From a bacterium (GTDB taxonomy: Bacteria; UBA10199; JADFYH01), in assembly GCA_046346885.1 (NCBI GenBank), contig JAXMHI010000008.1:52049-116048 (forward strand): 64,000 bases of DNA, in the 5' to 3' direction. This document shows, in pieces, positions 16,575 to 58,052 of this stretch. The notes under the pieces were generated by a model. It saw only the letters and a program-made list of their open reading frames with translations. It was not told the DNA's origin and made no database searches. The number at the start of each line of letters is the position of its first letter. Within the stretch, counting starts at the first letter, position 1. The translations under genes were made by a program, and so were the position numbers.

Positions 16575-16682
16575 ACGGAAGGAATGGGATTTCCCCTAAG
16601 GGGATTTCCTCGGCCTAAGCCTCAGTCACGAACCAGTTAATAAAAATGTGGGTTCTCATCCCACTCTCTATTGAATCAAAAA

Positions 16683-16769
16683 CGGAAGGAGTGGGATTCG
16701 AACCCACGATACCCTTTCAGGTATGCCGGTTTTCAAGACCGGTGCCATCAACCGCTCGGCCATCCTTCC
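16683..16769 (-). tRNA. tRNA-Ser (anticodon TGA)
   Basis: Reverse complement folds as GGAAGGA acceptor, anticodon loop CTTGAAA, long variable arm, and T-arm GTGGGTTCGAATCCCAC. Confidence 0.85.
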
Positions 16770-16797
16770 GATTCGCGATCGCTGGCAAAGCCAGACG

Positions 16798-16834
16798 CTC
16801 GCTAAAGCCAAGGGGAGCACTCCGTAGCTCCCCT
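16798..16834. repeat. Copy 1 of a 37-nt repeated element containing the hairpin GGGGAGC-N8-GCTCCCC
   Basis: CTCGCTAAAGCCAAGGGGAGCACTCCGTAGCTCCCC nearly identical to 36558-36594; followed by CCATTGG; lies upstream of tRNA-Ser on the minus strand. Confidence 0.6.
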
Positions 16835-17077
16835 TTTACCCCATTGGATGAGGAACTTTTATGATTATATAGCCTTATGCCAGTGGGATCTCACTTTTCT
16901 AAAGCACTTGCACTGATTCGTAAAGAATGTTTTAAAAAGACCCCCTTTATCGATAAAATGTAGTTTTCTTTAAAAAGAAAATACCTTATCCGGTGGGGGT
17001 TGAAGGGGGAGACCGGACTTCTCCCCCTGGGTTAGAAGGAGGGTCTGGCTTTGCCAGCCCGAGTGGAATCATCGGAA

Positions 17078-17167
<90 letters not shown>

Positions 17168-17179
17168 TAAAAATTTTTA

Positions 17180-17253
17180 GCGCCCATAGCTCAGTTGGAT
17201 AGAGCGTCGGTCTACGAAACCGAAGGTCGCATGTTCGAATCATGCTGGGCGCG
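17180..17253 (+). tRNA. tRNA-Arg (anticodon ACG)
   Basis: GCGCCCA acceptor, D-arm GCTCAGTTGGATAGAGC, anticodon loop CTACGAA, T-arm GCATGTTCGAATCATGC; 74 nt. Confidence 0.9.
17215..17253 (+). repeat. attL-like 39-bp direct repeat (3' half of tRNA-Arg)
   Basis: CGAAACCGAAGGTCGCATGTTCGAATCATGCTGGGCGCG is identical to 19203-19241. Confidence 0.8.
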
Positions 17254-17264
17254 CTTTAAAATCA

Positions 17265-21571: not shown

Positions 21572-24500
21572 ATGGAGCGTGCTCAGCTTAACGGGAGTGG
21601 AGAATTTTCTTTGCCCAGCGGCGAGGAATCTTCCGTCCTTCAAGACTCGGTCCTTTCGCGCCTCTCCGCGACCTCGCTTTCGTCCGTCTCTTCGTTGACG
21701 GAAAGCCAGGCGCAAGTGGACGTGCTTGTCGGCCGTTTCGCGGAAGAGGCCACGAATTGGCGGTCGCTCGCCGCCATGGCGACGGGATCGTTGTTCTACC
21801 GATTCGGCCGTATCGGTGCGCTAGCTTTGGCTTCGCGCTTACCCCAGGCGGCTCCTTTGTTCCAGGCGGCGTCCTACGGCGTCGGCTTGGCGACGGAAGT
21901 GGCGGCTTTCGAAGGCTCAAGCCGTTTCTTGGCGTACGCATCCGGAGACCGGTCGAACGCCAATCTTTGGAACTGGAACGGTCGCGGCGGTTGGCGCGAG
22001 GGACTCGCTCATTCTTTCGTGACCTTCGGCATGCTGAAGAGCGTGGGATTTTTAGCGCGCGAACAAAATGTCGTCTTGCAACACACGGTGAGCGATTTGG
22101 CGATGGTGGGCGGCAATCAGGTGGCGGCCGCGTTCGGGTTTGGTCCCCGTCCGGAAGGGAATTTTGCTTCGCAGATGCTGGAAGCGGAAGTAACCAATCT
22201 CCAGCTGGGCGCGGGGATGAGTTTATTGCACGGCGTTGCTCCAGGACTCGCCGCCTTCGAGAGGGCTTTGGATCTTACCGCATCGTCGGCGACGCCGGAT
22301 TTCCGCGCATCCCTTTCAAGTCTTCCGGATTTTTCTCCTTACCGCCCCGCTTATGCGGAAGGGGTGGAGAACTCGGACTCTTCGGTCCGATCTTTGGAGC
22401 CCCAGCGGGGTCCCACGATTTTGCAGATGACGATCGACGACGGGAAAAAGCCGGGCCGAGGCGTCGATACCTTGGATGCGCCTCCTGGTCTTGATCCAGC
22501 CGCCGGCGTTTCCCAACCCCTGCGCCGCAGCCCCCCTCCTCCTCCTTCTCCTCCGGGGCAGCCCATCGTTTTTCAGCCGGGCAGGAAGTTCGGCCCCGAT
22601 AGCGCTTTCCCCGAGGGGCGTTATGAAGTGATCCGTTGGTACGCCCAAGGCGGCTTCGGTAACATTTACCTTGTTCGCGATCATAAATTGAACCGCGACG
22701 TGGCGACAAAGATCCCCCGGGAGAACTTATACACGCAAGAGCATCTGGACCGCTTTCATCGGGAAATTCAGATTACGTCGCAGCTGGAGCTGGACGGGGA
22801 AAGTCTGGCGACCGTGCTCGACTTGGTGACCTTGCCCGAGGGCATGACCATCCCCATCATGAAATTCCTTCCGGGCGACGACTTGCTCAAATTGCGCACG
22901 CAATATTACCAACGGGATCGGGACGTTCTTCGTTTATACCCCTTGGAGCGCCGCATCGAAATTTTCGCGGAAATTTGCAAGATCGTCGATTCGGCCCACG
23001 AACAAGGAGTCATTCATCGAGATTTGAAGCCGGGCAACATCCGCATTCTTCCCGACGGCCGAGTGGTCCTCCTCGATTGGGGGCGGGCGATCAACATTCA
23101 CGGGGAGGAAGTGGTGCCTGGAGAGGAAGATCCGTCCTCCCACCCGAAAGGCTCCGTGCATTTGACCAGTCCCGGAAAGGTGATGGGAACGCCCGGCTAT
23201 ATTCCGCCGGAAGCGGGTTTGCTTCTTCCTCCGGATTCCTCCCCCCGATCCATCGACGTCTTTGCCTTGGGTGTCATTCTTTATGAGTGGATGACGGGCG
23301 TTCATCCCTTCGCCTTTTTCGAGTCCGGCAATACGGTCAGAGGCCAGGCGGAGAAGATCCCCCGTCGAGATCCTCACGGAGAAACGCAAATGAACGAAGT
23401 GGCGTCGTTCATGCGCTTGCCGAAGAACGAGCCTCCTCCCTTTCGGAGTGTGGTGACCGGCGAGCATCCATCCTATTTTTTCGAAATGGAGACCATCGCC
23501 CGCAAAGCCTTCGCCAATGATCCGAAATCCCGTTATTCGACCGCCCGAGAGTTGCGGGAAGCGGTGCTCATGGCGAGGGCCCAAGTCACCCGCCGCCGCA
23601 TTCATACCATCCAGGAGGAGATCGACCGTCTTCGGGAACAAGCGGAGCACGAGTGGGAAATTCTGCGTCATTCCCCGCAAGTGAAGAACGAAGCCCAGTG
23701 GGCGCGCATGCACGATCCCCTCTACGCGATGGTGGAGCTCCGACAGGAATGGCGCGAGTTGGCCCGCGGCGTCACGAACTACTTAAGTGGGAAACTCCAC
23801 CTGCTTTCCCAGCCGGAAATTGCGCGGGGCCTCATCGCCGAAATGAACTGGCTGCTGCTCATCGACGGCGGCGACCGCATGCCGCAGCAAGTTCGCGAGG
23901 AGCTGATGCAGACCATCCGGGAGAACGATTTGCCCAACGAGCAGGGAAGGGATTTCGGTTTCGCCCGCGCCTTGGAAGGGGATGCCTCGCTGCGTTTGCG
24001 GGTCCGAGATTTTTTTTCGGGGAAGGGTTTGGCCGCCTCCGAACTCAAAGTGAAAATCATTCCGCTGGTTCGGGAAGTGGGGAAGAACGGAAGGGAAACG
24101 CTCAATTTTCGTGAGGGACAAGAGGTCGAATTCGAGGGAGAAGATCTCCGGTCTCTAAGGCTTCCCGCGGGTTATTATATCGCGCAGGTTTCGCGCCCCG
24201 GATATGCGACGGCGAGGGTCCCCTTGGAAGTGACGCTCGATCAAGTCCGGCAGGGCCTTTTCTCCCAAGGGGATCTGCCTTGGGAAGTGGAGATGGTGCC
24301 GGTGGAGGAGGTGCCCGAGGGGTTTCGTTTGATTCACCAAGGAGTCGCCACGCTCGGTTATAATATTTTCCACGGCGAGATGCCCACCGACGTTTATAGT
24401 TCTCCCGAAAGAAAAATGCCCTTCCAATCCTTTTTGGCCAAAGAATTTCCGGAGACGGTTCAAGAGTACGTCACTTATATCGAAGATCGGCTCAACACGA

Positions 24501-25285
24501 TCAACGTGGCTCTGCAAAAGGGAAACATGGAGCGCGTGCGGCGCATCTTAAAAGAGGTGAGGGAGGCGGTGCCCAGGGCCCAGGCGACGGTACCCGACGC
24601 CCTGCCGGAGGACTTGTCCAAGTCTTTCGAAGGATTAAACCTTTACTGGCGCATCCGTTCACGGGGAAGTTTGGAGGAGAGAAATCTAAGATTTTTCATG
24701 GAGGATCCCACGTCTCATCCCGATCCGAACGGCGATCCCATGCGCGCTCGACAACCGATCAACGCGATTTCATATTTGGGAGGCGAGTCTTACGCGCGTT
24801 GGTTGAGCCGCACCCACGGGGTTCGGTATGAAATCGCCTCCGCGGAACAAGAAGAGATCATGGCCCGTAGCGCCCTGCCGTTTCCCTATCCGTGGGGATA
24901 CCGTTTCAATCCCTTTTATGTGGTTTCCCGTTCGGTCTTCTCCGATCTCATCAAAGGCACCTATCCCCAAGACGTGGGAACTCATCCTTTGGGGCAAGGG
25001 CAATATCGGGATTATTCCCTCGTTTACGGCATCCGGGATTTGATCGGCAACGTGCGTCGTTCCACCTCGACCCAGGTGGAGCCGGATACTCCCGCGAGTG
25101 AATCCACTCCCGCTCAACCGGGCACCATCTTCGTGAAAGGGGGATCTTTGCGGGTTCTTTGGGGGCCTTTCTTCCGGGCGGGGGTGGAGGCCCATGTGCG
25201 GAAAAACATCGCCGATGCCAGCATGGGAGGTTTCCGTCTTGTCGTCAATCTGACGGATCGGCGTTATTCTCCAAGAGTTCCTTAA
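21572..25285 (+). CDS. Paralog A: conserved N-module + Pro-rich linker + Ser/Thr protein kinase (DWG variant) + PEGA + FGE-sulfatase-like C-terminal domain
   Basis: 1237 aa. N-module (aa ~45-245) is 80-95% identical to the other two paralogs. Kinase motifs GGFGNIY, VATKI, HRDLKPGN, DWG, GTPGYIPPEA. PEGA-like LRLPAGYYIAQVSRPGYATARVPLEV. C-terminal YPWGY...GNV...KGGS...GFRLV matches the FGE/SUMF1 fold but lacks the catalytic Cys pair. Confidence 0.8.
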   Translation: MERAQLNGSGEFSLPSGEESSVLQDSVLSRLSATSLSSVSSLTESQAQVDVLVGRFAEEATNWRSLAAMATGSLFYRFGRIGALALASRLPQAAPLFQAASYGVGLATEVAAFEGSSRFLAYASGDRSNANLWNWNGRGGWREGLAHSFVTFGMLKSVGFLAREQNVVLQHTVSDLAMVGGNQVAAAFGFGPRPEGNFASQMLEAEVTNLQLGAGMSLLHGVAPGLAAFERALDLTASSATPDFRASLSSLPDFSPYRPAYAEGVENSDSSVRSLEPQRGPTILQMTIDDGKKPGRGVDTLDAPPGLDPAAGVSQPLRRSPPPPPSPPGQPIVFQPGRKFGPDSAFPEGRYEVIRWYAQGGFGNIYLVRDHKLNRDVATKIPRENLYTQEHLDRFHREIQITSQLELDGESLATVLDLVTLPEGMTIPIMKFLPGDDLLKLRTQYYQRDRDVLRLYPLERRIEIFAEICKIVDSAHEQGVIHRDLKPGNIRILPDGRVVLLDWGRAINIHGEEVVPGEEDPSSHPKGSVHLTSPGKVMGTPGYIPPEAGLLLPPDSSPRSIDVFALGVILYEWMTGVHPFAFFESGNTVRGQAEKIPRRDPHGETQMNEVASFMRLPKNEPPPFRSVVTGEHPSYFFEMETIARKAFANDPKSRYSTARELREAVLMARAQVTRRRIHTIQEEIDRLREQAEHEWEILRHSPQVKNEAQWARMHDPLYAMVELRQEWRELARGVTNYLSGKLHLLSQPEIARGLIAEMNWLLLIDGGDRMPQQVREELMQTIRENDLPNEQGRDFGFARALEGDASLRLRVRDFFSGKGLAASELKVKIIPLVREVGKNGRETLNFREGQEVEFEGEDLRSLRLPAGYYIAQVSRPGYATARVPLEVTLDQVRQGLFSQGDLPWEVEMVPVEEVPEGFRLIHQGVATLGYNIFHGEMPTDVYSSPERKMPFQSFLAKEFPETVQEYVTYIEDRLNTINVALQKGNMERVRRILKEVREAVPRAQATVPDALPEDLSKSFEGLNLYWRIRSRGSLEERNLRFFMEDPTSHPDPNGDPMRARQPINAISYLGGESYARWLSRTHGVRYEIASAEQEEIMARSALPFPYPWGYRFNPFYVVSRSVFSDLIKGTYPQDVGTHPLGQGQYRDYSLVYGIRDLIGNVRRSTSTQVEPDTPASESTPAQPGTIFVKGGSLRVLWGPFFRAGVEAHVRKNIADASMGGFRLVVNLTDRRYSPRVP

Positions 25286-25353
25286 TCTTGATTTGCCTGC
25301 CTGAAACGTCAAACTTTCCGATATAAAGCGTCAAAACCCCATTTTTTAAACGT

Positions 25354-25375
25354 AACTAAATAATATTATTTAGTT
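25354..25375. promoter_or_regulatory. Perfect 22-bp AT palindrome in the AT-rich upstream region of the small repeat-protein gene
   Basis: AACTAAATAATATTATTTAGTT is a perfect inverted repeat. It sits in a ~300-bp stretch of about 25% GC, ~210 nt upstream of the ATG at 25586. Confidence 0.35.
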
Positions 25376-25585
25376 ATTTGTTTTTATTTTCTAATAAAGA
25401 AAAAGAGTTTTTCCCCTTTTCTCCGGGTGATTTTTTACTTTTTTTATTCTCTCCTCTCTCTGTGACAAACAATCATAATTATTTGATTTTATTTAATTTT
25501 TTTAAAAATGCCTAAAAGGGCATGGCCTTTGCGTAACAGTCCCCCCGGGTGTGTGATTTTTTTACTCATGAAAAAGGGGGATGGA

Positions 25586-25891
25586 ATGAATAAAAAATCA
25601 ATTATTATCATGGTGTTATTATTCTCATGGATCGGTCTTTCCACTGTCGCCCGGGCGGAAACCATTGCTGAGAGAAATCTCAAATCCACCTTCGGTTCCT
25701 CCGTCATTTATCAAAACCAAGGGCCCCAATTTATGCCGACCGGCTTGGTTCAAAACCAGGGGCCTCAGTTTATGCCGACGAGTACGGTGGAAAATCAGCC
25801 GCCTCAATTCATGCCGGTGGGAACGGTTCAAAATCAGGGGCCCCAGTTTATTCCCGTCAATTGGCGTTATAACCAGCCTCCGCAGTTTTAG
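25586..25891 (+). CDS. Small secreted tandem-repeat protein (QNQGPQFMP repeats)
   Basis: Signal peptide MNKKSIIIMVLLFSWIGLSTVARA. Five imperfect 13-aa repeats (V)QNQGPQFMPTGL. SD AAGGGGGA upstream of the ATG at 25586. Confidence 0.6.
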   Translation: MNKKSIIIMVLLFSWIGLSTVARAETIAERNLKSTFGSSVIYQNQGPQFMPTGLVQNQGPQFMPTSTVENQPPQFMPVGTVQNQGPQFIPVNWRYNQPPQF

Positions 25892-25918
25892 ACCTTGTTT
25901 CTTCTCCGGGTTGTTGCA

Positions 25919-25953
25919 AGGCCCGTATCGGTGTTTTTTTACCGGTGCGGGCC
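25919..25953 (+). terminator. Putative terminator hairpin after the small repeat-protein gene
   Basis: GGCCCG...CGGTGTTTTTTTACCG...CGGGCC nested inverted repeats with a T-run. Confidence 0.35.
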
Positions 25954-26063
25954 TTCTTATTTGCGGAAATTTCTTTGATTTTCTGGCAACCTTCCCCCTT
26001 GCAGGCCGATAGGGCTTAGACTCCACCATTGTTTTTTCCTTAAGGATTGGTTCGGGTTTGTTT

Positions 26064-29000
26064 ATGACCTTTGGCTCCTCCATTTTTCGTTCGGCCCCGG
26101 ATGCCACTTTGCCGGATCATACGGAGACGCTACTCTCCCGTTTCTCTTCCCATTCTTTAGTCAATGATTCTTCCTTGAGTGCTTCCCAAGCGCAGGTGGA
26201 CGGTCTTGTGAGTCGTTTCACGGAAGAGGCGACGAATTGGCGGTCTTTGGCGGCGATGGCGACGGGTTCTTTGTTTTATCGCTTCGGCCGCATCGGTACC
26301 TTGGCCTTGGCCTCGCGCCTGCCTCAAGCGGCGCCTCTGTTTCAAGCGGCGTCCTACGGCATCGGTCTTGGGGCGGAAGTGACGGCTTTCGAAGGATCGA
26401 GCCGTTTCTTGGCGTATGCCTCGGGAGATCGATCGAACGCCAACTTGTGGAGGTGGAGCGGGAGAGGCGGATGGAGCGAGGGTTTGTCTCATTCCCTCGT
26501 CACCTTCGGCATGCTGAAGAGCTTCGGCCATTTGGGGAGCGAGCAGAATGTTGTTTTGCAACACGTGATGTCGGATTTGGGGATGGTGGGAGGGCATCAG
26601 GTTTCCGCCGCGTTGGGATTCACGCCTCGTCCCGAGGGGAGCCTTGCCTCACAATTCCTAGAAGCGGAGATTACCAATCTACAGCTCGGCGCGGGGATGA
26701 GCTTGTTGCACCTGGCGTCGCCCCGTCTGGCCGCTTTCGAACGGGGATTGGATCTTTCCATCCGCGCGCGGGAAACGACGGGCGCCCCGAATCGGAATTT
26801 AGAAAATTTTTTCGGGCCTCAAGAACAGCTTGTGTTCGACGGTGCGCCCGTGAGCCGAGAAACATTTGCGCCGGAGAACCCTTTTGAGGGACCTCAGATT
26901 CTTCTCATGTCTTCGAAAGAAGGCCCTAATAACGGAAAAGGAACGATTCCCGATCCGTCGAAGGTTCAACGCCCCGATTCGGTAATGGAAGTGACTCCTT
27001 CGATGATGGTTCCTCCTTCCGGCGTGGGGGTGGAAGGCCTCTCGAACGGAGAGGAGGTTGCGGATGGAGAAGTGATTCCAGGGGTTCCGATACGGGTGGT
27101 ATCCGAATCGGCATTGGCGCCGACTTCTCCGGCCCCGCCGGCGGTGGCGCCTGTCGTTATTAAACCCGGGGATGCCGATGCCGCGGCTGTGGATGCGGAT
27201 CCGCAGAGTGTGGGCGATCAACGGACCGTCGTGCGTCCCCTCCAACTTCCGCTTCCACCGGCCGTTCCGAACGGCGTCAGGGCGGGGGGCGCGGAAACCT
27301 TGCGCGAACAAGAAGTCGTTTCGAAGCTTTCCATCGCGCCTCCTCCCTCGGGAACCGTGGAAAGCGGAATGATCTTGGCGGGTCGCTACGAAGTGAAGGA
27401 ATTTCTCGGCGCTGGCGGTTTCGGAAACGTCTACAAGGTTCTCGATCAGCGCTTGGGCCGCATCGGCGTGATCAAGGTGCCGAGAGCCGAGATGGATACG
27501 GTCGAGTTCAGGCCGCGCTTCTCGAATGAAATCCGCATTACCGCCGCCCTCGATCCGCGTCGGGTCGTGGGGGTTTACGATTTGATCGAGCTCGCCGACG
27601 GGCGGCTCATCCCCGTGATGGAATACGTGCCCGGGCATGACCTCTCGGACATCGTGGGTCAACTCTCCGTAAGCCGCCGTTTGGAAATCTTCGCCGAGAT
27701 TTGCGAAGGGGTGGCTTCCGCCCATCGGAGAGGTTTCGTTCACCGTGATTTAAAGCCCGCCAACATCCGCATTACCTCCGACGGCCACGTGAAAATCATG
27801 GACTGGGGCCTGGCCAAACCGCTCGACGAAGTGACCGCGGGTGAAGGAGGGGCGGTCCCCACGGACCTTTCCGCGCGACTGAAAAGAAATTTGACCGTAG
27901 GAGGGGGCGGCATGCCCTTCGGGACGCCCGGATACATTGCCCCCGAGGCGTTTTTAGGCGGGAAGATTCCCAACCCGCGCTCTCTCGATAACTTCGCGTT
28001 GGGCGCCATTCTCTATGAGATGATGAGCGGGCGGCATCCTTTCGTGGACGATTGGAGCGAGCAGCGGGCCGTCGCCAATTACATGTCGACCCATCCTTCC
28101 GTGATCAGGCCCGTCTCGGAATTTAAGGATGTCCTCATCGGCGACTATCCGCCCATCGTTTACGAGGTGGAACCCATCGCCCGGCGCAGCCTGGAAAGAG
28201 AGCAGGCGAAACGTTTTCAAAACGCCCTCGAGATCCGCGATGCCGTGTTGATGGCACAGGCCCGCGTCGAGTTTAGGGCCATCGGCGAGGTGCGCACCGA
28301 AATGAAGCGGCTCGCCGCCCGGATGGTGGAGGCCTGGGATCATTTTGATCCTTCCCACCAAATCGACTCGAATTATTGGGATCAAGAAATGTATCAAACC
28401 CTCTACGACGTGAGGGATCGCCGCGCTGCCATGGACCAGCGGGCCATCGACTTGATCGCGCAGCTGGCGGAAATCAAGGTCGTGCTCACCGACCCCAACC
28501 CGGCCAAGAAGATGATCGCGGAGCTCTCTTGGATGCGCTTACTTTATGGGGGAGACCGGATGCCGGAGGGGCAGAGGCGGCTCCTGATCGACGCCATCTC
28601 GAAAAATGACGTCGCTACGGCGGAAGAAAAGATTCCCAGCATGAAGCTCGCGCTGGAAACGCCGCTTGGGATGGAGATCCGAGCGACCGATTGGCGGACC
28701 GGAAAATCCCTTTTTCAAGACGGGAGCTCCTTATATCACATGAACGTCAAGGTGCTTCCCTATGAACGGGACCGTTTGGGGAATTACAGCGAAGGGGCTC
28801 CCCTTTTAGACGGCCCTTTGGCGACCGTGCTTCCGCAGATGCACTTAAAGGCGGGATATTACGTGATCGAGGTTTCTTATCCCGGCTATGCGCCCATGCG
28901 AGTTCCTTTCCACATGAGGCTCAAGGACGTGCGGCGCGGTTTGCTGGAGGAGAAGCCCCATCTTCTGAATTTGGAGTTTATCCCTCAAGACCTCGTCCCT

Positions 29001-29939
29001 TCCGATTTCGACGTCATTCATGGCGGCTACGGCTACATCGGTCACGATTATATTTACGAAGGCGATCCCGCAAACGGTTACAGTCAACCGCTCCGGAAGG
29101 TGCAATACTCGACTTATGCGATTTCCCGGGTGCCCCCGCGGGTCCGTGATTATAAGGTTTTCATCGATTCGGAGTTGAGCATGGCCAACGCCTTGATCCG
29201 CGCCGGAAAGATCCGCGACGCGGGAATCCTGCTCAATCGTCTGAGGAATTTCATTCCGAGAAACCAGGCGGTGCCGCAAATTCCCGAAGACCGGATCACC
29301 GACGATCCGGCGACGCTCGTGCCTCTTTTCGAGAAGACCCCTTATTTGTGCTGGAGAGTGCGCATTCATCAAGAAGACGGTCTTCCCCAATTCTCGCTCA
29401 TCGACCCCTGGACCCACCATGACCGGGAGAACGGAGGGTATCCGATCTTGGAGCACGCCTCCGTGAGCGCGATTCCTTATCAAGCGGTGGAGGCGTTTCG
29501 GGATTGGCGGCGCGACCGGGACAATAGGGATTATGAAATCATGTCCGCAGAGGAAAACGAGATCATGGCCCGCGGTTCGTGGGAGCTCCCCTATCCTTGG
29601 GGCTACCATCCCAATCCCGCCTATTTAGTCTCCCGCTTGGTATTCGAAGATACTTGGAAAGACTCCTATCCCCGTCCTGTGGGTTCCCATCCCATGGGGC
29701 AACACCATTATCGCGATCGTTCGCCGTTCGGTCCCATTGACGTTTTGGGAAATACTCGAAAATGGACCTCGACCGTGATGGAGCCCGACGTCAATGCCAT
29801 GGCGGGTTTGTCCGTGAGGACGGGAACGGGGCCTTACGGGAATCCGGACTCCCGAACCTTAGGATCGACTGATAACTGGGCGGTGGATGCTAATGGTTCC
29901 TTCCGGCTTGTGCTGCGTTTTCCCCGCCGGAATCCATAA
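26064..29939 (+). CDS. Paralog B: conserved N-module + linker + Ser/Thr protein kinase (DWG variant) + PEGA + FGE-sulfatase-like domain
   Basis: 1293 aa. N-module nearly identical to paralog C. Kinase motifs GAGGFGNVY, VIKV, HRDLKPAN, DWG, GTPGYIAPEA. PEGA-like HLKAGYYVIEVSYPGYAPMRVPF. C-terminal YPWGY...GNTRKWTST...GSFRLV. The ATG at 26064 gives an MTF... start like paralog C. Confidence 0.8.
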   Translation: MTFGSSIFRSAPDATLPDHTETLLSRFSSHSLVNDSSLSASQAQVDGLVSRFTEEATNWRSLAAMATGSLFYRFGRIGTLALASRLPQAAPLFQAASYGIGLGAEVTAFEGSSRFLAYASGDRSNANLWRWSGRGGWSEGLSHSLVTFGMLKSFGHLGSEQNVVLQHVMSDLGMVGGHQVSAALGFTPRPEGSLASQFLEAEITNLQLGAGMSLLHLASPRLAAFERGLDLSIRARETTGAPNRNLENFFGPQEQLVFDGAPVSRETFAPENPFEGPQILLMSSKEGPNNGKGTIPDPSKVQRPDSVMEVTPSMMVPPSGVGVEGLSNGEEVADGEVIPGVPIRVVSESALAPTSPAPPAVAPVVIKPGDADAAAVDADPQSVGDQRTVVRPLQLPLPPAVPNGVRAGGAETLREQEVVSKLSIAPPPSGTVESGMILAGRYEVKEFLGAGGFGNVYKVLDQRLGRIGVIKVPRAEMDTVEFRPRFSNEIRITAALDPRRVVGVYDLIELADGRLIPVMEYVPGHDLSDIVGQLSVSRRLEIFAEICEGVASAHRRGFVHRDLKPANIRITSDGHVKIMDWGLAKPLDEVTAGEGGAVPTDLSARLKRNLTVGGGGMPFGTPGYIAPEAFLGGKIPNPRSLDNFALGAILYEMMSGRHPFVDDWSEQRAVANYMSTHPSVIRPVSEFKDVLIGDYPPIVYEVEPIARRSLEREQAKRFQNALEIRDAVLMAQARVEFRAIGEVRTEMKRLAARMVEAWDHFDPSHQIDSNYWDQEMYQTLYDVRDRRAAMDQRAIDLIAQLAEIKVVLTDPNPAKKMIAELSWMRLLYGGDRMPEGQRRLLIDAISKNDVATAEEKIPSMKLALETPLGMEIRATDWRTGKSLFQDGSSLYHMNVKVLPYERDRLGNYSEGAPLLDGPLATVLPQMHLKAGYYVIEVSYPGYAPMRVPFHMRLKDVRRGLLEEKPHLLNLEFIPQDLVPSDFDVIHGGYGYIGHDYIYEGDPANGYSQPLRKVQYSTYAISRVPPRVRDYKVFIDSELSMANALIRAGKIRDAGILLNRLRNFIPRNQAVPQIPEDRITDDPATLVPLFEKTPYLCWRVRIHQEDGLPQFSLIDPWTHHDRENGGYPILEHASVSAIPYQAVEAFRDWRRDRDNRDYEIMSAEENEIMARGSWELPYPWGYHPNPAYLVSRLVFEDTWKDSYPRPVGSHPMGQHHYRDRSPFGPIDVLGNTRKWTSTVMEPDVNAMAGLSVRTGTGPYGNPDSRTLGSTDNWAVDANGSFRLVLRFPRRNP
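26178..26770. repeat. Left arm of a ~590-bp near-identical inverted repeat (N-module coding DNA of paralog B)
   Basis: The same out-of-frame ORF translation (MAVFGGDGDGFFVL...GDELV) appears at 26237-26887(+) and 33435-34130(-). This implies >95% nucleotide identity in inverted orientation. Confidence 0.75.
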
Positions 29940-30166
29940 TTTTCCTCAAATTTTTTAAAGATGGGCTCAATGGACTAAAATGATATTTAATTTTGGTTCC
30001 TAAAGTCCCCACCCGCGTCATTATTTTGACTGGTCCCTAAATCATGCTTAAATTGTTAAAATAATTAACTCTTTTTAAGTAATCCTTCCTTTTTTCATGA
30101 AAAAAATTGGGTGAAAACACCTCACTTTGATCAAGTCTTAACAAGTTTGAAATAACTATAAATATA

Positions 30167-30178
30167 TGATATTTAATT
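30167..30178. promoter_or_regulatory. AT-rich motif TGATATTTAATT, also at 29981-29992 and similar to the 25354-25375 palindrome
   Basis: Two exact copies lie upstream of the second small repeat-protein gene, within a 320-bp AT-rich region; a similar TAATATTATTTAGTT lies upstream of the first. Confidence 0.35.
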
Positions 30179-30258
30179 GAAATCTAAAAAACGCCCCCTA
30201 TGGCATAAGATCTGCTTCATTATCAACGGGTTGGTGATCATAAAAGGAGGATAGATTC

Positions 30259-30711
30259 ATGAGAAAAGGATTTTCGCTTTTTATTTTGGGTGCGGTCTTA
30301 TTGGCTTTCCAATCAGCGGGGTTTACGGAGGAAGTGGCCCACGATATGCAATTTTGCAGTCAGAAGAACGTGGATGAGCTCACCGTTAACGAATTGAAAG
30401 ACTGCGTCACTCACTTCAAAAAAACCATTAGCGCGAAAAACGGAAACATCTTGGAGATGGCTCCCCAAACCTTGACGGAAATGCCGCCTCAAACCTTGAC
30501 GGCGATGCCGCCGCAAACCGTCAATGCGATGCCGCCGCAGACGGTGAATGCCATGCCCCCGCAAACAATCAACGGAATGGCGCCGCAGACGATCACGGCG
30601 ACTCCCGTTTTCATGGCGCCTCAAACGATCAACGCGATGCCTCCCCAGACGATCAACGGGGTGAACTCGGTGATCGAGAAAAAAGGCATGGCCCCCCAAA
30701 CGCTGCGCTAA
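30259..30711 (+). CDS. Small secreted tandem-repeat protein (MPPQTxxA octapeptide repeats)
   Basis: Signal peptide MRKGFSLFILGAVLLAFQSAGF. About 9 tandem repeats of MPPQT(L/V/I)(T/N)(A/G). Strong SD AAAAGGAGGA. Confidence 0.65.
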   Translation: MRKGFSLFILGAVLLAFQSAGFTEEVAHDMQFCSQKNVDELTVNELKDCVTHFKKTISAKNGNILEMAPQTLTEMPPQTLTAMPPQTVNAMPPQTVNAMPPQTINGMAPQTITATPVFMAPQTINAMPPQTINGVNSVIEKKGMAPQTLR

Positions 30712-30736
30712 GAATAAAAAAGGAATCGTGGAAGAA

Positions 30737-30766
30737 AAGGCCCCCTTGTGGGGCCTTTTTTATTTT
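30737..30766. terminator. Bidirectional intrinsic terminator between the repeat-protein gene and corA
   Basis: GGCCCCC-ttgt-GGGGGCC perfect hairpin followed by TTTTTTATTTTT. Confidence 0.7.
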
Positions 30767-30776
30767 TGACGGAAAG

Positions 30777-31769
30777 CTAAAGCCACTTCTTTTTCTTGAA
30801 AAAGAAAATCATGCCTCCCGCCACCCCGATCATGATGAACCAGAGGAGATAATAAAAACCCTTCCAGTGGAATTCGGGCATGTAGTCGAAGTTCATGCCG
30901 TAGACGCCCACGATGAAGGTTAAGGGAAGGAAGATCGTGGCGGCGATGGTCAAGCGCTGCATGACGAAATTCAGATTGTTGGAAGACTCAGTCATCTTGA
31001 TGGAAAGCATGGCGGCATAAACGTCGAAGACCGACGCGGCGTGTTCCTTCAAACTTTCGAGTTCCTGCAGGAGCACCTGCATGTCGTCGAGCACATTCTT
31101 GAAGTAGGGCCGCGCCTCCGCGGAGATGCAAGGCAGGCTCTTTTCGTAGAGCTGCTTGATCACGTCGCGCTCGGGCAAGAGGTTTTTGCGCATGGTGGTG
31201 ACGAGCTTCTTGAATTGCAGAATTTGGTCGAGAATTTTCTCATGGGCACCTTTCAATACCTGGTGCTCGATTTCCTCGAGCATTTCCTGCCACTGTTCGA
31301 TGACGGGTTCGTGGTCTTTTACGGCGAGGTCCAAAAGGTGGAAGAGGACGTAAGGTGTCCCCTTGCCGAGCGTTTCTTGCGGTTCTTCCCGCACCCGTTC
31401 CCTCGCGGTGCCGAACGTGCGCGCCAAGTGGGCCCGGTGGATCGTGACGATGAACTGTTCGGAGAAAAACACTTCGAATTCGCGTCGCTCGCACTCTTCC
31501 CGATCGAAGTGGTAGAAGACCCGGTGCAACACGAGGAAAGCATAGGTCTCATAGAGGTTGATTTTCGGTACTCCCGCCATGCTCTTCACGTCTTCGACGG
31601 CCAGGGGGTGGAAACGGAAGACGGAATCCAGGATTTCCAATTCCGAGTCGGTGGGTTCGTCCAAGTCCACCCACACGCGGCGACGGTCGTTCAACGCTTC
31701 TTCGAGAAGTTTCAGGTCGTGGGTTTCGACGAGTTGTCCCGTTTCGGAAAAAAGCAGGATATGCAGCAT
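30777..31769 (-). CDS. corA: Magnesium/cobalt transporter CorA
   Basis: C-terminal two TM helices with the YGMNF (GMN) motif; 330 aa. Confidence 0.85.
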   Translation of the reverse strand: MLHILLFSETGQLVETHDLKLLEEALNDRRRVWVDLDEPTDSELEILDSVFRFHPLAVEDVKSMAGVPKINLYETYAFLVLHRVFYHFDREECERREFEVFFSEQFIVTIHRAHLARTFGTARERVREEPQETLGKGTPYVLFHLLDLAVKDHEPVIEQWQEMLEEIEHQVLKGAHEKILDQILQFKKLVTTMRKNLLPERDVIKQLYEKSLPCISAEARPYFKNVLDDMQVLLQELESLKEHAASVFDVYAAMLSIKMTESSNNLNFVMQRLTIAATIFLPLTFIVGVYGMNFDYMPEFHWKGFYYLLWFIMIGVAGGMIFFFKKKKWL

Positions 31770-31828
31770 GCGTTTTCGCTCCCTTTACGGGGCACTATAG
31801 CATGCCGGTTTAAAATCCCTCATTCATT

Positions 31829-34285
31829 TTATGGAAGGCGTCCCAGCTCGGTTGGCAAGAGTGATTCATGTCCCTTCCTTCGCAAGGCACGGCGAAGAAC
31901 GGCCCAGCCGGGATATGAATCTTGGAGGAGGAAGAGGGATTCCCAGTAAGGGTGAATTTCCAAGAAGAAGTCTTTCCCAAGCTCGCTTCCGTCTTCACCG
32001 GTCAAGGCGAGCAGTTCCCAAGAGTAGCCGGCTTGAGAAAGTTCCCGCTCCTTTTCCGGCGAGAGGGTAATCCTTCGTTGGGCAAGGTAGGCTCGGAAAG
32101 AGTTTTTTAATTCTTCGCCTATTTCGGGAAGGACGTAGTCGAATCCCATCTTGGGCCAGAAAGCCCCCCCTTGTTTTCCAACGGGCACTTCATAGTTGGC
32201 GATTCCCATTCTTTTGAGGAAGAGAAGTTCGTTGGCCACGATGACGCCGCCGATGCCTTGTTGCTTGAATTCCGGCCGCACGTCCAATCCTCTGCCCTTG
32301 GCATAGGGACGGAAATTTTTTTGGGGGGAAAAATGGATTTCGCGATGGAAATCGGCCACGTCTCTGCCTGTTTCTTCCGTCACGACCAGGCCCGAGAAAG
32401 AGACTCGGTCGCTGAAGGTGTTGAAGGAGAGTCTTCCGATTTTATAACCGGAGGGAAGGCGGTAAAAAAGGGCGAGAGCTTCTTCTACGGAGGGGGCCGA
32501 AAGGGGAAAGGCGCGTTGCAGACGCGCGAGAGGGGTTGTGCTTCTTTCCGTGACCTTCTTGTGATTGATGACGAGCGTGCCGCGGCGTTCCTCCGCGATT
32601 CTTAGGGAGCTCGCGATCTCCTCCGGGAAAGGGTAGGGCGCTTCCGTGGAATCGAGCGCCTCCCGAAGCAATCTCCAACCCGGATATCCCGCGTCCAAAT
32701 CGAAACTGGTGAGCCACGAGCAGGGTTCATAACGGCTTAAAAATTCGCGGCCCACCTCGCGGTTGTTGCGCATCTTGAAGTGCGCCAACTCCCAACTGTG
32801 TTCGATGAGTGTAAGCCTCGCGTCTTCCCGGGGGGAAAGGGAGATGCGTTGTTCGGCCAGGTATTCACGGAATTGCATGAGTTTCTTTTCCCGCGTTGCT
32901 GCATCCACGAAATCGAAGCCGCGTGTGGCCCAGAAGTGGCCGCCGTTTCTCCCCGCAGGGACGAAGAACGTGGAAACCCCGAGCTCCCGGAAGAAGAGGA
33001 GGTCCGAAAGGGTGAGATGAGTTCCCAAACCCTTGCCGCGCTCATGTTCTCCGAATACCTCCAGGCCGTCCCCCATCGCGACGAGTAGCGGCCGGGTGGC
33101 ATCCACGTTCATTTGGATGACGCGGCGATAGGTGGCCTTGCCGAGTCCGTTCTCGCCCAAGAAATCCCCTTCAATTTTCAAAGCTCCGTTGCTCATTTCT
33201 TGGAAACTGATGTGGCGGACGGGAAAACGGGGATGCGTATGGGTGAGCCATGAAAGAATTTTTTCCAAGTCGATTCTTCTGCCCGCCCTTCGCGATAAGA
33301 CGCGTTGCAAGGGGCCTAAATCGCCTTCGAGAAGCCGGCCGTTTACCACCAGCCGCGTGCCGGGCGGGAGAGAGGCTGTCGGGGGATTCGGGAGACGCTC
33401 GACCGGAGGTAGGGGCTCTAAGCGCGAGGAGCTTTTACCCGTTTCTCCCTCCGAGGGACGAATCATAATGGCGGCCAGGGGGCGGGAAAGCGTTTCCGAT
33501 AAAGACGCGGGTTCTATCGCTGCGTGTGGAACTCCTTCCACAGCGGCTTCCATCCGCCAAGCATTTTGGAAGTGGCGCGTGCTGGGAGGGGTTTCGTTTG
33601 CGGCGATGGAAAGATCCAATCCCCGTTCGAAAGCGGCCAGACGGGGCGACGCCATGTGTAACAAGCTCATCCCCGCGCCGAGCTGTAGATTGGTAATCTC
33701 CGCTTCTAGGAATTGTGAGGCAAGGCTCCCCTCGGGACGAGGCGTGAATCCCAACGCGGCGGAAACCTGATGCCCTCCCACCATCCCCAAATCCGACATC
33801 ACGTGTTGCAAAACAACATTCTGCTCGCTCCCCAAATGGCCGAAGCTCTTCAGCATGCCGAAGGTGACGAGGGAATGAGACAAACCCTCGCTCCATCCCC
33901 CTCTCCCGCTCCACCTCCACAAGTTGGCGTTCGATCGATCTCCCGAGGCATACGCCAAGAAACGGCTCGATCCTTCGAAAGCCGTCACTTCCACCCCAAG
34001 ACCGATGCCGTAAGAGGCCACTTGAAAGAGCGGTGCCGCCTGAGGCAGGCGCGAGGCCAAGGCCAAGGTGCCGATACGGCCGAAGCGGTAGAACAAAGAA
34101 CCCGTCGCCATCGCCGCCAAAGACCGCCAATTCGTCGCCTCTTCCGTGAAACGACTCACAAGACCGTCCACCTGCGCTTGAGCGGCGCTTAGGGGCCGGG
34201 TGCGTTCGTTTTCCAGGGACGAAGCGGTAATGCGATCCAAAACCGAGGGGCTTGAGGATCCGTCGAAAGTAAATGAAAAAGTCAT
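31829..34285 (-). CDS. Paralog C: conserved N-module fused to two tandem GNAT-like acyltransferase domains
   Basis: 818 aa. N-module ~98% identical to paralog B. Two repeats containing GNAT motif A-like ERGKGLGTHL / KQQGIGGVIV and motif B-like GGHFWATRGFDFV / GGAFWPKMGFDYV. Confidence 0.75.
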   Translation of the reverse strand: MTFSFTFDGSSSPSVLDRITASSLENERTRPLSAAQAQVDGLVSRFTEEATNWRSLAAMATGSLFYRFGRIGTLALASRLPQAAPLFQVASYGIGLGVEVTAFEGSSRFLAYASGDRSNANLWRWSGRGGWSEGLSHSLVTFGMLKSFGHLGSEQNVVLQHVMSDLGMVGGHQVSAALGFTPRPEGSLASQFLEAEITNLQLGAGMSLLHMASPRLAAFERGLDLSIAANETPPSTRHFQNAWRMEAAVEGVPHAAIEPASLSETLSRPLAAIMIRPSEGETGKSSSRLEPLPPVERLPNPPTASLPPGTRLVVNGRLLEGDLGPLQRVLSRRAGRRIDLEKILSWLTHTHPRFPVRHISFQEMSNGALKIEGDFLGENGLGKATYRRVIQMNVDATRPLLVAMGDGLEVFGEHERGKGLGTHLTLSDLLFFRELGVSTFFVPAGRNGGHFWATRGFDFVDAATREKKLMQFREYLAEQRISLSPREDARLTLIEHSWELAHFKMRNNREVGREFLSRYEPCSWLTSFDLDAGYPGWRLLREALDSTEAPYPFPEEIASSLRIAEERRGTLVINHKKVTERSTTPLARLQRAFPLSAPSVEEALALFYRLPSGYKIGRLSFNTFSDRVSFSGLVVTEETGRDVADFHREIHFSPQKNFRPYAKGRGLDVRPEFKQQGIGGVIVANELLFLKRMGIANYEVPVGKQGGAFWPKMGFDYVLPEIGEELKNSFRAYLAQRRITLSPEKERELSQAGYSWELLALTGEDGSELGKDFFLEIHPYWESLFLLQDSYPGWAVLRRALRRKGHESLLPTELGRLP
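33600..34190. repeat. Right arm of the ~590-bp inverted repeat (N-module coding DNA of paralog C)
   Basis: See the left arm at 26178-26770. Confidence 0.75.
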
Positions 34286-43847: not shown

Positions 43848-43952
43848 AAAGGTCGCCTCCAAGAAGATTGTTGTGAACAAGTCTTAAATGTATGTTGCAT
43901 CGATTCTTTTAAGATCTTATCCCCAGCTAATCCACATTAATTCACAAGAAAT

Positions 43953-47977: not shown

Positions 47978-50900
47978 TCACGCCGACTGCTTGAGTTCCT
48001 TTAAAATCTTATAAAAGTATCCCTGAGAAACCCCCAGCCATTTGATGGCGGTGTAAGGCTTCGCCCCTGAATATTCGTGGGCTGCCTGAAAGACTTTCTT
48101 CACGTAGTCTTGCAGGGTGAGGTTCGCGTCGTAGAGGAAGGGGTTTTGGAAGAGCGCGTTGTTGGCGTTGGCAAGGTCGAATTCTTTGATGCGCTTGTAG
48201 ACGGTGGCCAGCGAGAGGTCGAGTACTTCCGCCGTCTTGGAGGGATTGGATCCCTGAGTTTGATACGCTTTTGCGGTAATCAATTTTTCGTAGTCGTTCC
48301 AAGTCATGTTGGGGTCGTAGAGGTTTTGCCCGTCGATGAGCACCCTCACGCCCGGCGCAGCCCCTTTGCTTATTACCGGCGGCGTCGCGCTTTCGCCTAC
48401 GGCGGCCGCCGCAGGAGACGCGGCGGCTTTCGCGCCCGAATCGATGTTTCGCCGAATTCCGTAGCTGGTCGGGAGCGATTCGTAGGTGAGTTCGTCGTGG
48501 TCGGCCAGGGCGGTGGCCACCGAGATGATGTTTTCCAACTCGCGCACGTTGCCCGGCCAATCGTACTCCAATAATTTTTTCATGAAAGAAGGAGCCAGCT
48601 TCAGATCCCTCTCGATGCCGTGCTGCTTGCGGTACATCGACATGAATTTCTCCGCCAAGAGAGGGATGTCTTCCTTGCGGTTGCGCAGGGGAGGCAGGTC
48701 AATCTTGATTTGGCAGATGCGGTAGAAAAGATCTTCGCGGAAACGCCCCGTCTTGATTTCTTCCTCTAAATTCTTATGGCTCGCCGCGACGATGCGCACG
48801 TCGACGTTGTAGGTTTTCGTGTCGCCCACGGGCGTGATTTCCGCCTCTTCCAACACGCGAAGCAGCTTTACCTGCAGGTTCATGTCGAGCTCTGCCACCT
48901 CGTCTAAAAAGAGCGTGCCGCCGTCGGCCTCGACGAAGAGGCCTTTCTTGTCCTTCGTCGCCCCCGTGAAGGAGCCGGCCTTATGGCCGAAGAGCTCGCT
49001 TTCCATGAGGTTCGCCGGGATCGCTCCGCAGTTGATGGCGACGAAGCGCTTATCTTTTCGGATTTTGTTGTTGTAGTGAAGGGCCTTCGCGATGAGTTCC
49101 TTTCCGGTTCCCGTCTCGCCGTTGATGAAGACGGCCAGCGAGGTTTCGGTGATTTTGTCCAAGAGACGGAAGATGTCGTACATCGCCTTGCTCTTGGCGA
49201 TGATCTTCTCGTAGGAGTATTTCGTCGGGATGTTGATCGACTCTTCCTCCATGATCGCTTGGTAGGCCGACACTTCGTTTTCCGCTTCCTCCAATTTTTT
49301 CCTCAGCTCGAGCTCCGCCTGCTGGTACTGATTGATCAATTTCGCGTTTTCGATCGCGATCCCCACCTGGTCGCAGAAGGCCATGAGCACCTTGAAGTTG
49401 ACCCTCTTGAAGGCGCCGGGGCGATAGCGGTTATCCAAGTAGAGTACGCCCACCGTCTTGTTGCGCGACTGGATGGGCAGGCAGAGGATGGAGCGCAGCT
49501 TCAAGATCATCACCGATTGATATTCATTAAAGCGGTTGTCCCCCGAGGCGTCGTCCGTTTGCACCGGCTCGCCCGAATTCAAGACGCGTTCGGCGATGCT
49601 CGTCGAGATCTGGGCTAAGTTGGGGGAGAGCTCGGCGTTGAGGCAGGCCTTCACTTCGAGCGTGCCCTTTTCGTCCACGAGGAGGATGAGGCCGCGTTCC
49701 GCATGCGAAAGTTCCAGGGCGTTGTGCAAGATCGTCTTCAAGAGAAAGTCGAGGTTGTGCTCCGAGTTCAAATATTTGTTGAGGGTGAGGATATACTCGT
49801 ATTCCTTCTCGAGAGTCGCCAGCCCGCTGCCTGAGTCTTCGTGCACCTCCACGGGGGCGGCCACCTGCTTTTTCACCTCCGGCTTGGGGGAGGGAACCAC
49901 CATGGTCACTCCACCCATCATCTTTTCGATTTCCTTCAAATCTTCTTTCTGTTCCGGCTCCGTGGCGAGTTCGCGGGTTTTCTCCAAGCTTTCCTGGGCC
50001 TCTTCCACCCGCAGTTGGTCGATGTAGAGTCGCGTGAAGGCCCCGTGCACCCAGTAGAGTTGACCTTTGAGGCTGGTATTCTGCTCGATGAGCCCCAGCG
50101 CGTCCCGCAGGGCGTCGCGGGAGACCTCGAATTTCTTCTGCTTGCGCAATACGTCGCCCATCTCGAGCTTGGCGCGGGCGAGAAAGTAAAGTTGGTAGGC
50201 GGTTTTCTGGGGGATGCGCTCTAAGAGGAAGATCGCGTTCACCAAATGGGGGTGCGAGTCTTCGTAGTGTCCCGACTCGTTGTAGATGATGCCCATGTTG
50301 GCGGCGATGGCCGCCTGCGAGTTGATGTCTTGGATCTTCTGGCTGATAGCCAAGGCTCGTCCGTAATAGTGGAGCGAGTTCTCGATGTCGCGGTTCACGT
50401 TGTATACGTTGCCCAAGCCGTTATAGGCGCGCAACAGCAGCTCGTAATAGCGGTGGGCCTTCGAGATTTCCACGCAGGCCTTATATTGCTCGATCGTGTG
50501 GTTTAAATCCTTCAGCGCATAATACACTTCCCCCAAATGATAATGGGTACGGGCGGTGAGGAAGTGGTGATGGATCGACTTGTAGAAATCCAGATCTTTC
50601 TGGAATTGGGCCAGGGCCTTCGGATAGTCGTGCTTCAAATGGTAGACGGTGGCCAGATCGTTATTGAGCACTTCCTTGCGTTCATTTTCCTTTAGTTCTT
50701 CTTCCCACACCTTGTGGGTGTTTTCGAAAATTTTCAGGGCCTCGTCGAGTTTCCCCTCCACGATGCGTGCTCGTCCCATGTAGTTTTCGATGATGAGGCG
50801 CTTGCCCGTACTCAAATCGAATTCTTCCAGAAGGGCGATCGCCGACGAGAAAATCTCTTTCGCCTTGTCCGGTTCGTGGCGCTTTAAGTAAATGACGCCC

Positions 50901-57818: not shown

Positions 57819-58052
57819 AAAAATATCCTCATAAACCTTTTAAAAACGGACGTTTACTTTTTCTCCTTTCTTTTTTTCTTCCCCAATTTTTCCCGAAGCG
57901 CTCCCGCGATTTTTGACGCGCATGACGGCAAATATCGATGAAATTTGCCTCCGCCGTTTGACACGTCGCATTAATTCGTTGACAACTTTATCCAACTCTG
58001 GTCGAAAATAAATACAGATAGGGGAATAGACTTGAGCAAGGGGGTTAGCCGG

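Follow-up and report, generated by a model that had tools for sequence, protein, structure and literature searches.

The subject of this analysis is a 64,000-nucleotide stretch of bacterial DNA (the window; positions 52,049 to 116,048 of the 125-kb contig JAXMHI010000008.1, assembly GCA_046346885.1), taken from a metagenome-assembled genome (MAG) with the locus tags U1F57_. Three open reading frames (ORFs) in the window, here named A, B and C, share one N-terminal module (N-module) that is joined to different C-terminal partners. A first-pass annotation, made from the sequence without database searches, had described the three ORFs as carrying a nearly identical module of unknown function, and both alignment and tblastn agreed with this description. 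The features of the three ORFs, in window coordinates, are as follows.

21572..25285, + strand: ORF A, 1237 aa; N-module, linker, Ser/Thr kinase, FGE-sulfatase-like domain
21647..21670, + strand: N-terminal motif of A, SVLSRLSA (family consensus M-T-[DE]-[ST]-V-L-S-R-L-S)
21701..22279, + strand: helical bundle of the A N-module, aa 44-236; seven predicted helices; Trp/Gly loop NLWNWNGRGGW at ~aa 131-141
22289..22645, + strand: low-complexity Pro-rich linker of A, aa 240-358, with the conserved short motif GPTILQMTIDDGKKPGRG at 22409-22462
22646..23542, + strand: protein kinase domain of A (Pfam Pkinase, E 2.3e-25)
24395..25243, + strand: FGE-sulfatase-like domain of A (Pfam, 32 bits, cut-off 23.3)
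26064..29939, + strand: ORF B, 1291 aa, MFO1519408.1; N-module, long linker, kinase, FGE-sulfatase-like domain
26181..26759, + strand: helical bundle of the B N-module, aa 40-232
26187..26762, + strand: B side of the tract shared with C, 576 nt, 97.4% identical to C, with random identity directly outside
26889-26942, + strand: short motif of B, GPQILLMSS
27387-28088, + strand: Ser/Thr kinase domain of B (Pfam)
29013-29798, + strand: FGE-sulfatase-like domain of B (Pfam)
31829..34285, - strand: ORF C, 818 aa, MFO1519411.1, U1F57_07120; N-module, linker, two tandem repeats of ~240 aa
33608..34186, - strand: helical bundle of the C N-module, aa 34-226
33605-34180, - strand: C side of the conversion tract
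33431-33484, - strand: short motif of C, RPLAAIMIRPSEG
32648-33355 and 31832-32602, - strand: tandem repeats of C, with weak GNAT similarity

The first 300 residues of A, B and C aligned at 61-62% identity, with a block of ~190 residues that was nearly invariant, and the modules themselves are 80-98% identical. A tblastn search with the A module found A, B and C and no further copy in the window (100%, 82% and 79% identity, with E from 1e-103 to 1e-135). ORF B starts with ATG at 26064, while the mechanical ORF list opens it at TTG 26058. The NCBI protein for A (MFO1519406.1, 1224 aa) begins at a non-ATG codon 13 codons downstream of the ORF start used here (21611 versus 21572), and the true start may lie further downstream still, judging from other paralogs, which carry M-T-x-x-V-L-S-R-L-S at their very N-terminus.

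The Ser/Thr kinase and FGE-like domains that had been assigned to A and B were both recovered above the Pfam gathering thresholds (Pkinase 89.9 bits in A and 126.7 bits in B, cut-off 31.7; FGE-sulfatase 32.0 and 26.8 bits, cut-off 23.3), and the NCBI names of the two proteins agree with this assignment. A PEGA domain (PF08308) proposed for both was absent from their Pfam matches at E <= 0.1. For C, the first reading of two GNAT folds held in part: a tandem duplication did give rise to the C-terminal half (the two repeats are 31% identical over 235 aa, E 2e-31), but its GNAT identity comes down to one sub-threshold Pfam match (Acetyltransf_7, E 0.036, with 14.9 bits where the cut-off is 27), and the repeats had no NCBIfam or PDB sequence match. 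Downstream of the module A and B are 35% identical, and the C-terminus of C is unrelated to both. The first-pass annotation had noted that the module lacks a signal peptide; neither a signal peptide nor a hydrophobic window of transmembrane grade was found anywhere in A, B or C.

The ~200-residue module that had been outlined at first corresponds to a helical bundle, but the conserved unit is larger, and takes in, ahead of the bundle, the N-terminal motif [ST][VIL]L[ST]R[LF]S and, ~35-45 residues (median 38) past the bundle in the disordered linker, a post-module motif (P-x-[IV]-[LA]-x-M-S...G-x-G). The post-module motif was matched by a strict pattern in ~30% of members and was recognisable in most or all of the MAG paralogs examined. 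An internal translation start at the conserved Met of this motif was considered and judged unlikely, as residues are conserved at the protein level on both sides of it and the conserved Gly-Pro codons, reasoning on codon positions, are too far upstream for a ribosome-binding site.

An AlphaFold2 model of the module, built from a 75-sequence alignment, was predicted with a local confidence score (pLDDT) of 89.7 and a global score (pTM) of 0.80. In the predicted fold, the N-terminal motif forms a short helix, after which come seven helices, each 16-33 residues long, that span A residues 44-239. Foldseek comparison of this model with the PDB gave nothing below E 0.6 and only weak, non-specific helical-bundle matches; a structure search with an earlier model from a shallow alignment (pLDDT 59.9) had given nothing. 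Pfam and NCBIfam searches matched nothing in the module of the full proteins, and nothing at E <= 5 for 40 module-only sequences, and no PDB sequence matched it. When the PADLOC models of anti-phage defence systems were run on A, B and C at full length, generic kinase models (PD-T4-6, mad6) recognised the kinase domains and nothing else, with no match on the module, C or the small ORFs described below. A literature search turned up nothing that bears on the module. The module, which had been suspected from the start to be new, is thus a genuinely novel domain family, without a match in the domain and structure libraries searched.

The module does not have the usual composition of a soluble domain: 13-14% of its residues are charged, compared with 27% in the rest of A, and Gly, Ala and Ser together account for 33-37%. 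In the five central helices (21-33 residues) the hydrophobic moment is low and Gly residues within the helix are conserved, and an amphipathic helix lies at each end of the bundle. A Trp/Gly loop (NLWxWxGxGG) is conserved, and Glu, His, Asn, Gln, Arg, Trp and Gly positions are invariant or nearly so. A check for membrane association by hydrophobicity found no transmembrane-grade window in the module: the 19-residue Kyte-Doolittle maximum was 1.08 in A, and a value of 1.6 was reached by only five of 136 relatives. A classical membrane anchor was ruled out on this ground.

Three members, as first described, is the correct count for the window, but the family extends well beyond them, with at least 14 module proteins encoded in this MAG. 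These include MFO1519042, MFO1518466, MFO1518467, MFO1518297, MFO1518175, MFO1518625, MFO1519467 and a LuxR-type protein, together with U1F57_01490, U1F57_08720 and the fragment U1F57_01485. When 1.84 billion cluster representatives (clusters at 50% identity) were searched exhaustively with a profile, 889 proteins were found at E <= 1e-3, of which 388 were at E <= 1e-30. Among the best 150 of the 889, which ranged from 166 to 3930 aa, the match always began at or before residue 55 and the module occurred once per protein. A metagenome scan found 72 loci, mostly from a few soil metagenomes, at which the module heads ORFs of ~500-2560 aa. Among GTDB species genomes the module is nearly absent, being found in two MAGs only, both labelled 'uncultured Pseudomonadota bacterium'. 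No module matches were found in IMG/VR or in the plasmid collection PLSDB, and a phage or plasmid origin was ruled out on that basis. The PrfA protein encoded in the window is 77% identical to a protein of a 'Deltaproteobacteria bacterium' MAG and 64-66% identical to proteins labelled Bdellovibrionota or Bacteriovoracia.

The C-terminal partners of the module, hereafter its clients, are highly diverse: those of 121 representatives fell into 76 unrelated BLAST classes. A Pfam census of 47 and a further 63 diverse members found no known domain in most C-termini. The domains that were found all belong to signalling, transcription, metabolism or repeats, and included Pkinase, FGE-sulfatase, GGDEF, HisKA/HATPase_c, PAS and FHA; HPr, HTH_3/HTH_19, GerE, sigma70 region 4, HEAT/LRV repeats and AAA_5; and aminotransferase, malic enzyme, amine oxidase, biotin carboxylase, phosphatidylserine decarboxylase and CDP-alcohol phosphatidyltransferase. 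No toxin domain was among the families listed for these 110 members. Between the module and the first catalytic domain lies a low-complexity linker 100-700 residues long.

The clients in this MAG include three kinase/FGE proteins, the tandem-repeat protein C, a LuxR helix-turn-helix (HTH) protein, a 1803-aa PlsC-like acyltransferase, a 2504-aa single-chain acetyl-CoA carboxylase (ACC) with an ACC_central region, and a 2575-aa protein with an FHA domain and a double AAA_5. A related assembly encodes the module on a 3930-aa type I fatty-acid synthase (FAS), with acpS and then two more module genes directly downstream.

L073 1-12335, Logan SRR26348421 contig (38 kb): type I FAS locus, fungal/actinobacterial-style FAS

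The fas-acpS arrangement is that of a housekeeping operon, as in mycobacterial fas-acpS. Lipid-synthesis enzymes recur among the clients (FAS, ACC, the PlsC-like protein, phosphatidylserine decarboxylase and CDP-alcohol phosphatidyltransferase). It was also observed that the type I FAS and the single-chain ACC with its eukaryote-type ACC_central region point to lipid-synthesis machinery like that of eukaryotes and actinobacteria in a deltaproteobacteria-like lineage.

Bacterial Ser/Thr kinases, FGE-sulfatase-linked ones included, usually have a transmembrane segment C-terminal to the kinase (bioRxiv 10.1101/2025.01.12.632604). No such segment was found in A and B, where no hydrophobic window reached 1.6 anywhere. 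A diversity-generating retroelement aimed at the FGE-like domains was also considered and rejected, as no template/variable repeat pair was present in 21-35 kb of the window.

Comparison of the modules with one another indicated how the copies evolve. The ratio of non-synonymous to synonymous substitution rates (dN/dS) was 0.11 for A and B (dS 1.2) and 0.08 for B and C (dS 0.09), values from which strong purifying selection on the module is deduced. The 576-nt tract shared by B and C differs at 15 positions, mostly synonymous; its flanks are unrelated, and identity falls to random at its edges inside one 30-nt window. These sharp edges, together with the dS of 0.09, indicate that a gene conversion or module transfer took place recently and affected the module alone. 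Among the paralogs of the MAG, modules are 60 to 81% similar, with 98% for B and C, and this similarity does not follow the type of C-terminus; the module of the third kinase/FGE paralog is less like those of A and B than are the modules of several unrelated proteins.

The neighbourhoods of module genes are those of core genes. A, B and C are surrounded in the window by genes for a glycosyltransferase, corA, hisBH, bioB and a DUF882 peptidase, and the Pfam-annotated flanks of relatives contain obg, proB/A, rsfS, rlmH, a phosphoglycerate mutase (iPGM), mutL, miaA, enolase and cytochrome-c assembly genes. Module genes often stand two or three in tandem, and C and most loci are followed by a housekeeping gene or another module gene. 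All-against-all clustering of neighbours from the 72 loci and the window revealed no recurrent family linked to the module, the sole neighbour cluster that covered more than two loci being one of generic kinase/sigma-54-type proteins. The co-occurrence with secretion-system genes that had been suggested as a check was not seen: none were present in the 64-kb window or in the flanks of ~80 loci, and immunity-like or chaperone genes were likewise absent from those flanks.

We favour the interpretation, with about as much belief for it as against it, that the module is a common intracellular address or tether domain carried on a long disordered linker. According to this model, a lineage-specific domain of seven helices and ~200 residues would bring unrelated cytoplasmic proteins to one shared site in the producing cell, with the disordered Pro/Ser-rich linker joining it to the client, and gene conversion or module transfer between paralogs such as B and C would keep the copies of one genome alike. 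Several features argue together for an address or tether, namely the strict N-terminal position of the module, its folded and strongly conserved state, the arbitrary nature of its cytoplasmic clients, the long linkers and the homogenised copies. Homogenisation within a genome is what would be expected if all copies must recognise the same partner or surface. The data establish how the module is conserved and where it sits, its fold class, composition, clients, genomic context and concerted evolution; co-localisation as its function we infer from the architecture alone, and the membrane as the site we also infer. Targeting to a common scaffold or compartment, one of the two options raised in the first-pass annotation, is therefore the one that the evidence favours.

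The most likely site would be the cytoplasmic face of the membrane or another lipid surface, while a close and equally simple alternative would be a shared protein scaffold, or modules that co-assemble with each other. Hints of a membrane or lipid surface come from the module itself, with its apolar, Gly-rich helices, its Trp loop and structural neighbours (at low scores) that resemble membrane proteins, from the over-representation of lipid-synthesis clients, and from the missing kinase transmembrane segment in A and B. Several points weigh on the other side. The membrane sub-claim is weak, in that the module is not hydrophobic enough for any insertion threshold and scores low in the structural comparisons, and conserved Arg residues lie inside the putative core helices; the client list, moreover, is partial, with most client C-termini lacking a Pfam domain. 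Given an address or tether function, the membrane is thus a tentative choice of docking site, and one that we would sooner doubt than accept.

A more extended version of the address model can be put forward as a speculative possibility. An uncultured lineage of soil and groundwater, deltaproteobacteria- or Bdellovibrionota-like, might sort a defined sub-proteome to one subcellular structure by means of a novel-fold address domain, with gene conversion keeping the tags matched to their receptor. This sub-proteome would comprise at least a dozen proteins per genome, including FAS, ACC, phospholipid enzymes, Ser/Thr kinases, cyclic di-GMP enzymes and transcription factors, and its destination might be a lipid body, a membrane domain of a specialised kind or a compartment not seen so far.

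The first-pass annotation had given first place to the architecture of delivered effectors or polymorphic toxins, in which the module would serve for export or for insertion into a target-cell membrane and the C-termini would act in another cell. Several observations fit such a secretion address: a conserved N-terminus with highly variable C-termini, many paralogs per genome, tandem arrays, the module swap between B and C, C-termini that are mostly unannotatable, as is typical of effectors, and marginally hydrophobic helices that recall, by general analogy, secreted membrane-inserting proteins. The labels of the PrfA relatives, Deltaproteobacteria or Bdellovibrionota, also belong to a group with predators. 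However, of the four features that define such systems only the conserved N-terminal domain with variable C-termini was found; toxin C-termini, among the families listed for the 110 members, and a downstream immunity gene and linkage to a secretion apparatus, in the window and the flanks of ~80 loci, were not. The recognised clients are cytoplasmic and of a housekeeping or bacterial-internal kind (HPr, aminotransferases, GGDEF and histidine kinases, HTH and sigma-like proteins), and neither a fas-acpS operon nor a full-length ACC makes plausible cargo. Chaperone genes and a recurrent neighbour family linked to the module are lacking in those flanks, the genes sit among core genes, the module is absent from the phage and plasmid collections, and no Pfam match to LXG, MIX, PAAR, Rhs or PE/PPE was obtained. 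We therefore consider delivery to other cells improbable. A common regulatory or sensor input is somewhat less improbable, yet still unlikely. Here the bundle would bind a ligand (for example a lipid or acyl-CoA) or be a shared modification target, and would control the outputs as GAF, PAS or membrane-associated sensor domains do. The many signalling clients (Ser/Thr kinase, GGDEF, histidine kinase, HTH) are in keeping with this, the lipid-synthesis clients could have a common feedback by a lipid ligand, and the conserved polar residues E109, H171, E206, N209 and Q211 (A numbering) could form a ligand site in the apolar bundle; the Ser/Thr-rich leader and the presence of kinase and FHA domains among the clients also count in its favour. 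Nevertheless, disordered linkers as long as those found before the first catalytic domain are a poor fit to direct allosteric coupling, a strictly N-terminal, single-copy layout is unusual for small-molecule sensor domains, and the copies in A, B and C have other residues at several of the positions where His is conserved.

The fixed distance of the post-module motif from the bundle and the strict N-terminal position would also be expected of a handle for stability, turnover or assembly, that is a shared degron, an adaptor-recognition domain, or a pro-domain removed at P-x-I-L-x-M-S, through which a single protease or chaperone would control how many proteins mature or how abundant they are. 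At the 72 loci and in the window, however, the module had no linked gene for a protease or adaptor, a degron would hardly need 200 residues under strong purifying selection, and there is no evidence of cleavage, so that we give this explanation as little weight as the secretion one. An assembly duplication or a non-functional lineage-specific repeat, which the near-identity of B and C over their shared tract could have suggested, is so improbable that it can be set aside. Their differences are mostly synonymous and their flanks unique, an independent Logan assembly holds the identical 1237-aa A protein, the 889 cluster representatives come from many samples, and the dN/dS of ~0.1 and the confident structure prediction are those of a functional domain. 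Duplication in the assembly, which the first-pass annotation had asked to have checked along with conservation beyond the window, is thereby excluded. An address or tether within the producing cell remains the reading that we prefer to all of these.

Small ORFs follow the kinase/FGE genes at window positions 25508-25891 (+ strand; likely start 25586) and 30259-30711 (+ strand), and at 7893-8540 of L002, a locus with a soil-metagenome ortholog. Their products have a signal-peptide or lipoprotein-like N-terminus and tandem repeats of 8-13 residues rich in Pro and Met (QNQGPQFMP ~5 times, MPPQT[LVI]NA ~10 times and SDPIMG ~10 times), without a Pfam or PADLOC match. As signal-peptide repeat proteins downstream of A, B and the L002 ortholog, they are unlike cytoplasmic immunity proteins. 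Their synteny with the kinase/FGE genes is conserved, and the kinase/FGE-like proteins may have in them a partner or a substrate.

Other genes of the window were noted in passing. A 1669-aa protein (47978-52987, - strand) combines an N-terminal Ser/Thr kinase, an AAA_16/STAND-like NTPase, TPR, GAF, a sigma-54 activator AAA+ domain and a C-terminal HTH; it has no N-module, and its relatives recur near module genes at L017, L038, L070 and L072. Two adjacent paralogs of ~600 aa with lipoprotein-like N-termini and no Pfam match are encoded at 53583-55394 and 55391-57298 (+ strand), and a homolog lies near the L017 module gene. An 858-aa protein (58032-60608, + strand) has an Amidase domain at residues 460-649, preceded by ~450 residues without a Pfam match; a Ser-rich 'TSVLDRS' near its start resembles the N-terminal motif of the family, and the module is absent. 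A ribonucleotide-reductase-like protein with barrel and TSCPD domains (41031-43880, - strand) has ~440 N-terminal residues without assignment. Three clustered tRNA genes, for Ser(tga), Ser(gct) and Arg(acg), occupy 16682-17254, ~4.3 kb upstream of ORF A. Outside the window, a homolog of deoxyhypusine synthase (PF01916), an enzyme typical of archaea and eukaryotes, is encoded near a module gene in MAG GCA_964470915.1 (L077 9245-10219 and L078 6519-7520).

At the least, the module defines a large domain family (~900 clusters at 50% identity) with a confidently predicted fold that none of the domain and structure libraries searched describes, and it merits a family definition. B and C, whose genes differ in function, provide a clean natural case of gene conversion at the level of a module. 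Should the module prove to be a sorting or tethering domain, it would mark the whole lipid-synthesis line (ACC, FAS I, acyltransferases and head-group enzymes) and many signalling proteins as placed together, and would point to a form of subcellular organisation in uncultivated bacteria that has gone unrecognised. The extended model, if true, would mean bacterial protein sorting built on a domain instead of a short signal peptide.

The nearest known systems by architecture are the PE/PPE proteins and the trafficking domains of polymorphic toxins, and the nearest by logic the dockerins and the encapsulation and cargo-loading peptides. Like the mycobacterial PE (~110 aa) and PPE (~180 aa) domains, the module is a lineage-restricted, all-helical, Ala/Gly-rich N-terminal domain that heads a large paralog family, with heterogeneous and partly enzymatic C-termini, tandem arrays, gene conversion and a W-x-G-containing turn between helices. 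Unlike them, it appears to belong to a deltaproteobacterium- or Bdellovibrionota-like host and not to an actinobacterium, and it heads cytoplasmic housekeeping and signalling enzymes with no ESX-like genes seen nearby, whereas PE/PPE proteins are type VII secretion substrates. The Pfam profiles of PE/PPE, LXG, MIX and WXG100 gave no match at E <= 0.1 with the full proteins or at E <= 5 with the 40 module-only sequences. The trafficking domains of polymorphic toxins (LXG, MIX, PAAR/Rhs, CdiA) also place one conserved N-terminal domain before many C-termini, with recombination at the junction, but they are accompanied by the toxin C-termini, immunity genes and secretion linkage that were not found here, and the module matches none of those families.

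N-terminal multi-helix modules that precede GGDEF, histidine-kinase or Ser/Thr-kinase outputs are also known from MASE1-4, MHYT and 7TMR-DISM. These have genuine transmembrane hydrophobicity and signalling outputs only, whereas the present module lacks such hydrophobicity and also heads FAS, ACC and aminotransferases. The known systems set beside the module also included Tim17/Tim22/Tim23-OEP16 (PRAT) proteins and other marginally hydrophobic membrane helix bundles. The closest functional logic is that of the dockerin-cohesin pairs of cellulosomes, the encapsulation peptides of microcompartments and the cargo-loading peptides of encapsulins, in which a shared tag on a flexible linker is carried by unrelated enzyme clients. 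Those tags are short peptides or 70-aa Ca-binding modules, often C-terminal and encoded beside scaffold or shell genes, whereas the module is a 200-aa apolar helical bundle and strictly N-terminal. The general mode, a shared tag on diverse clients, is thus a familiar one, while the tag itself and the set of clients that it heads are unprecedented.

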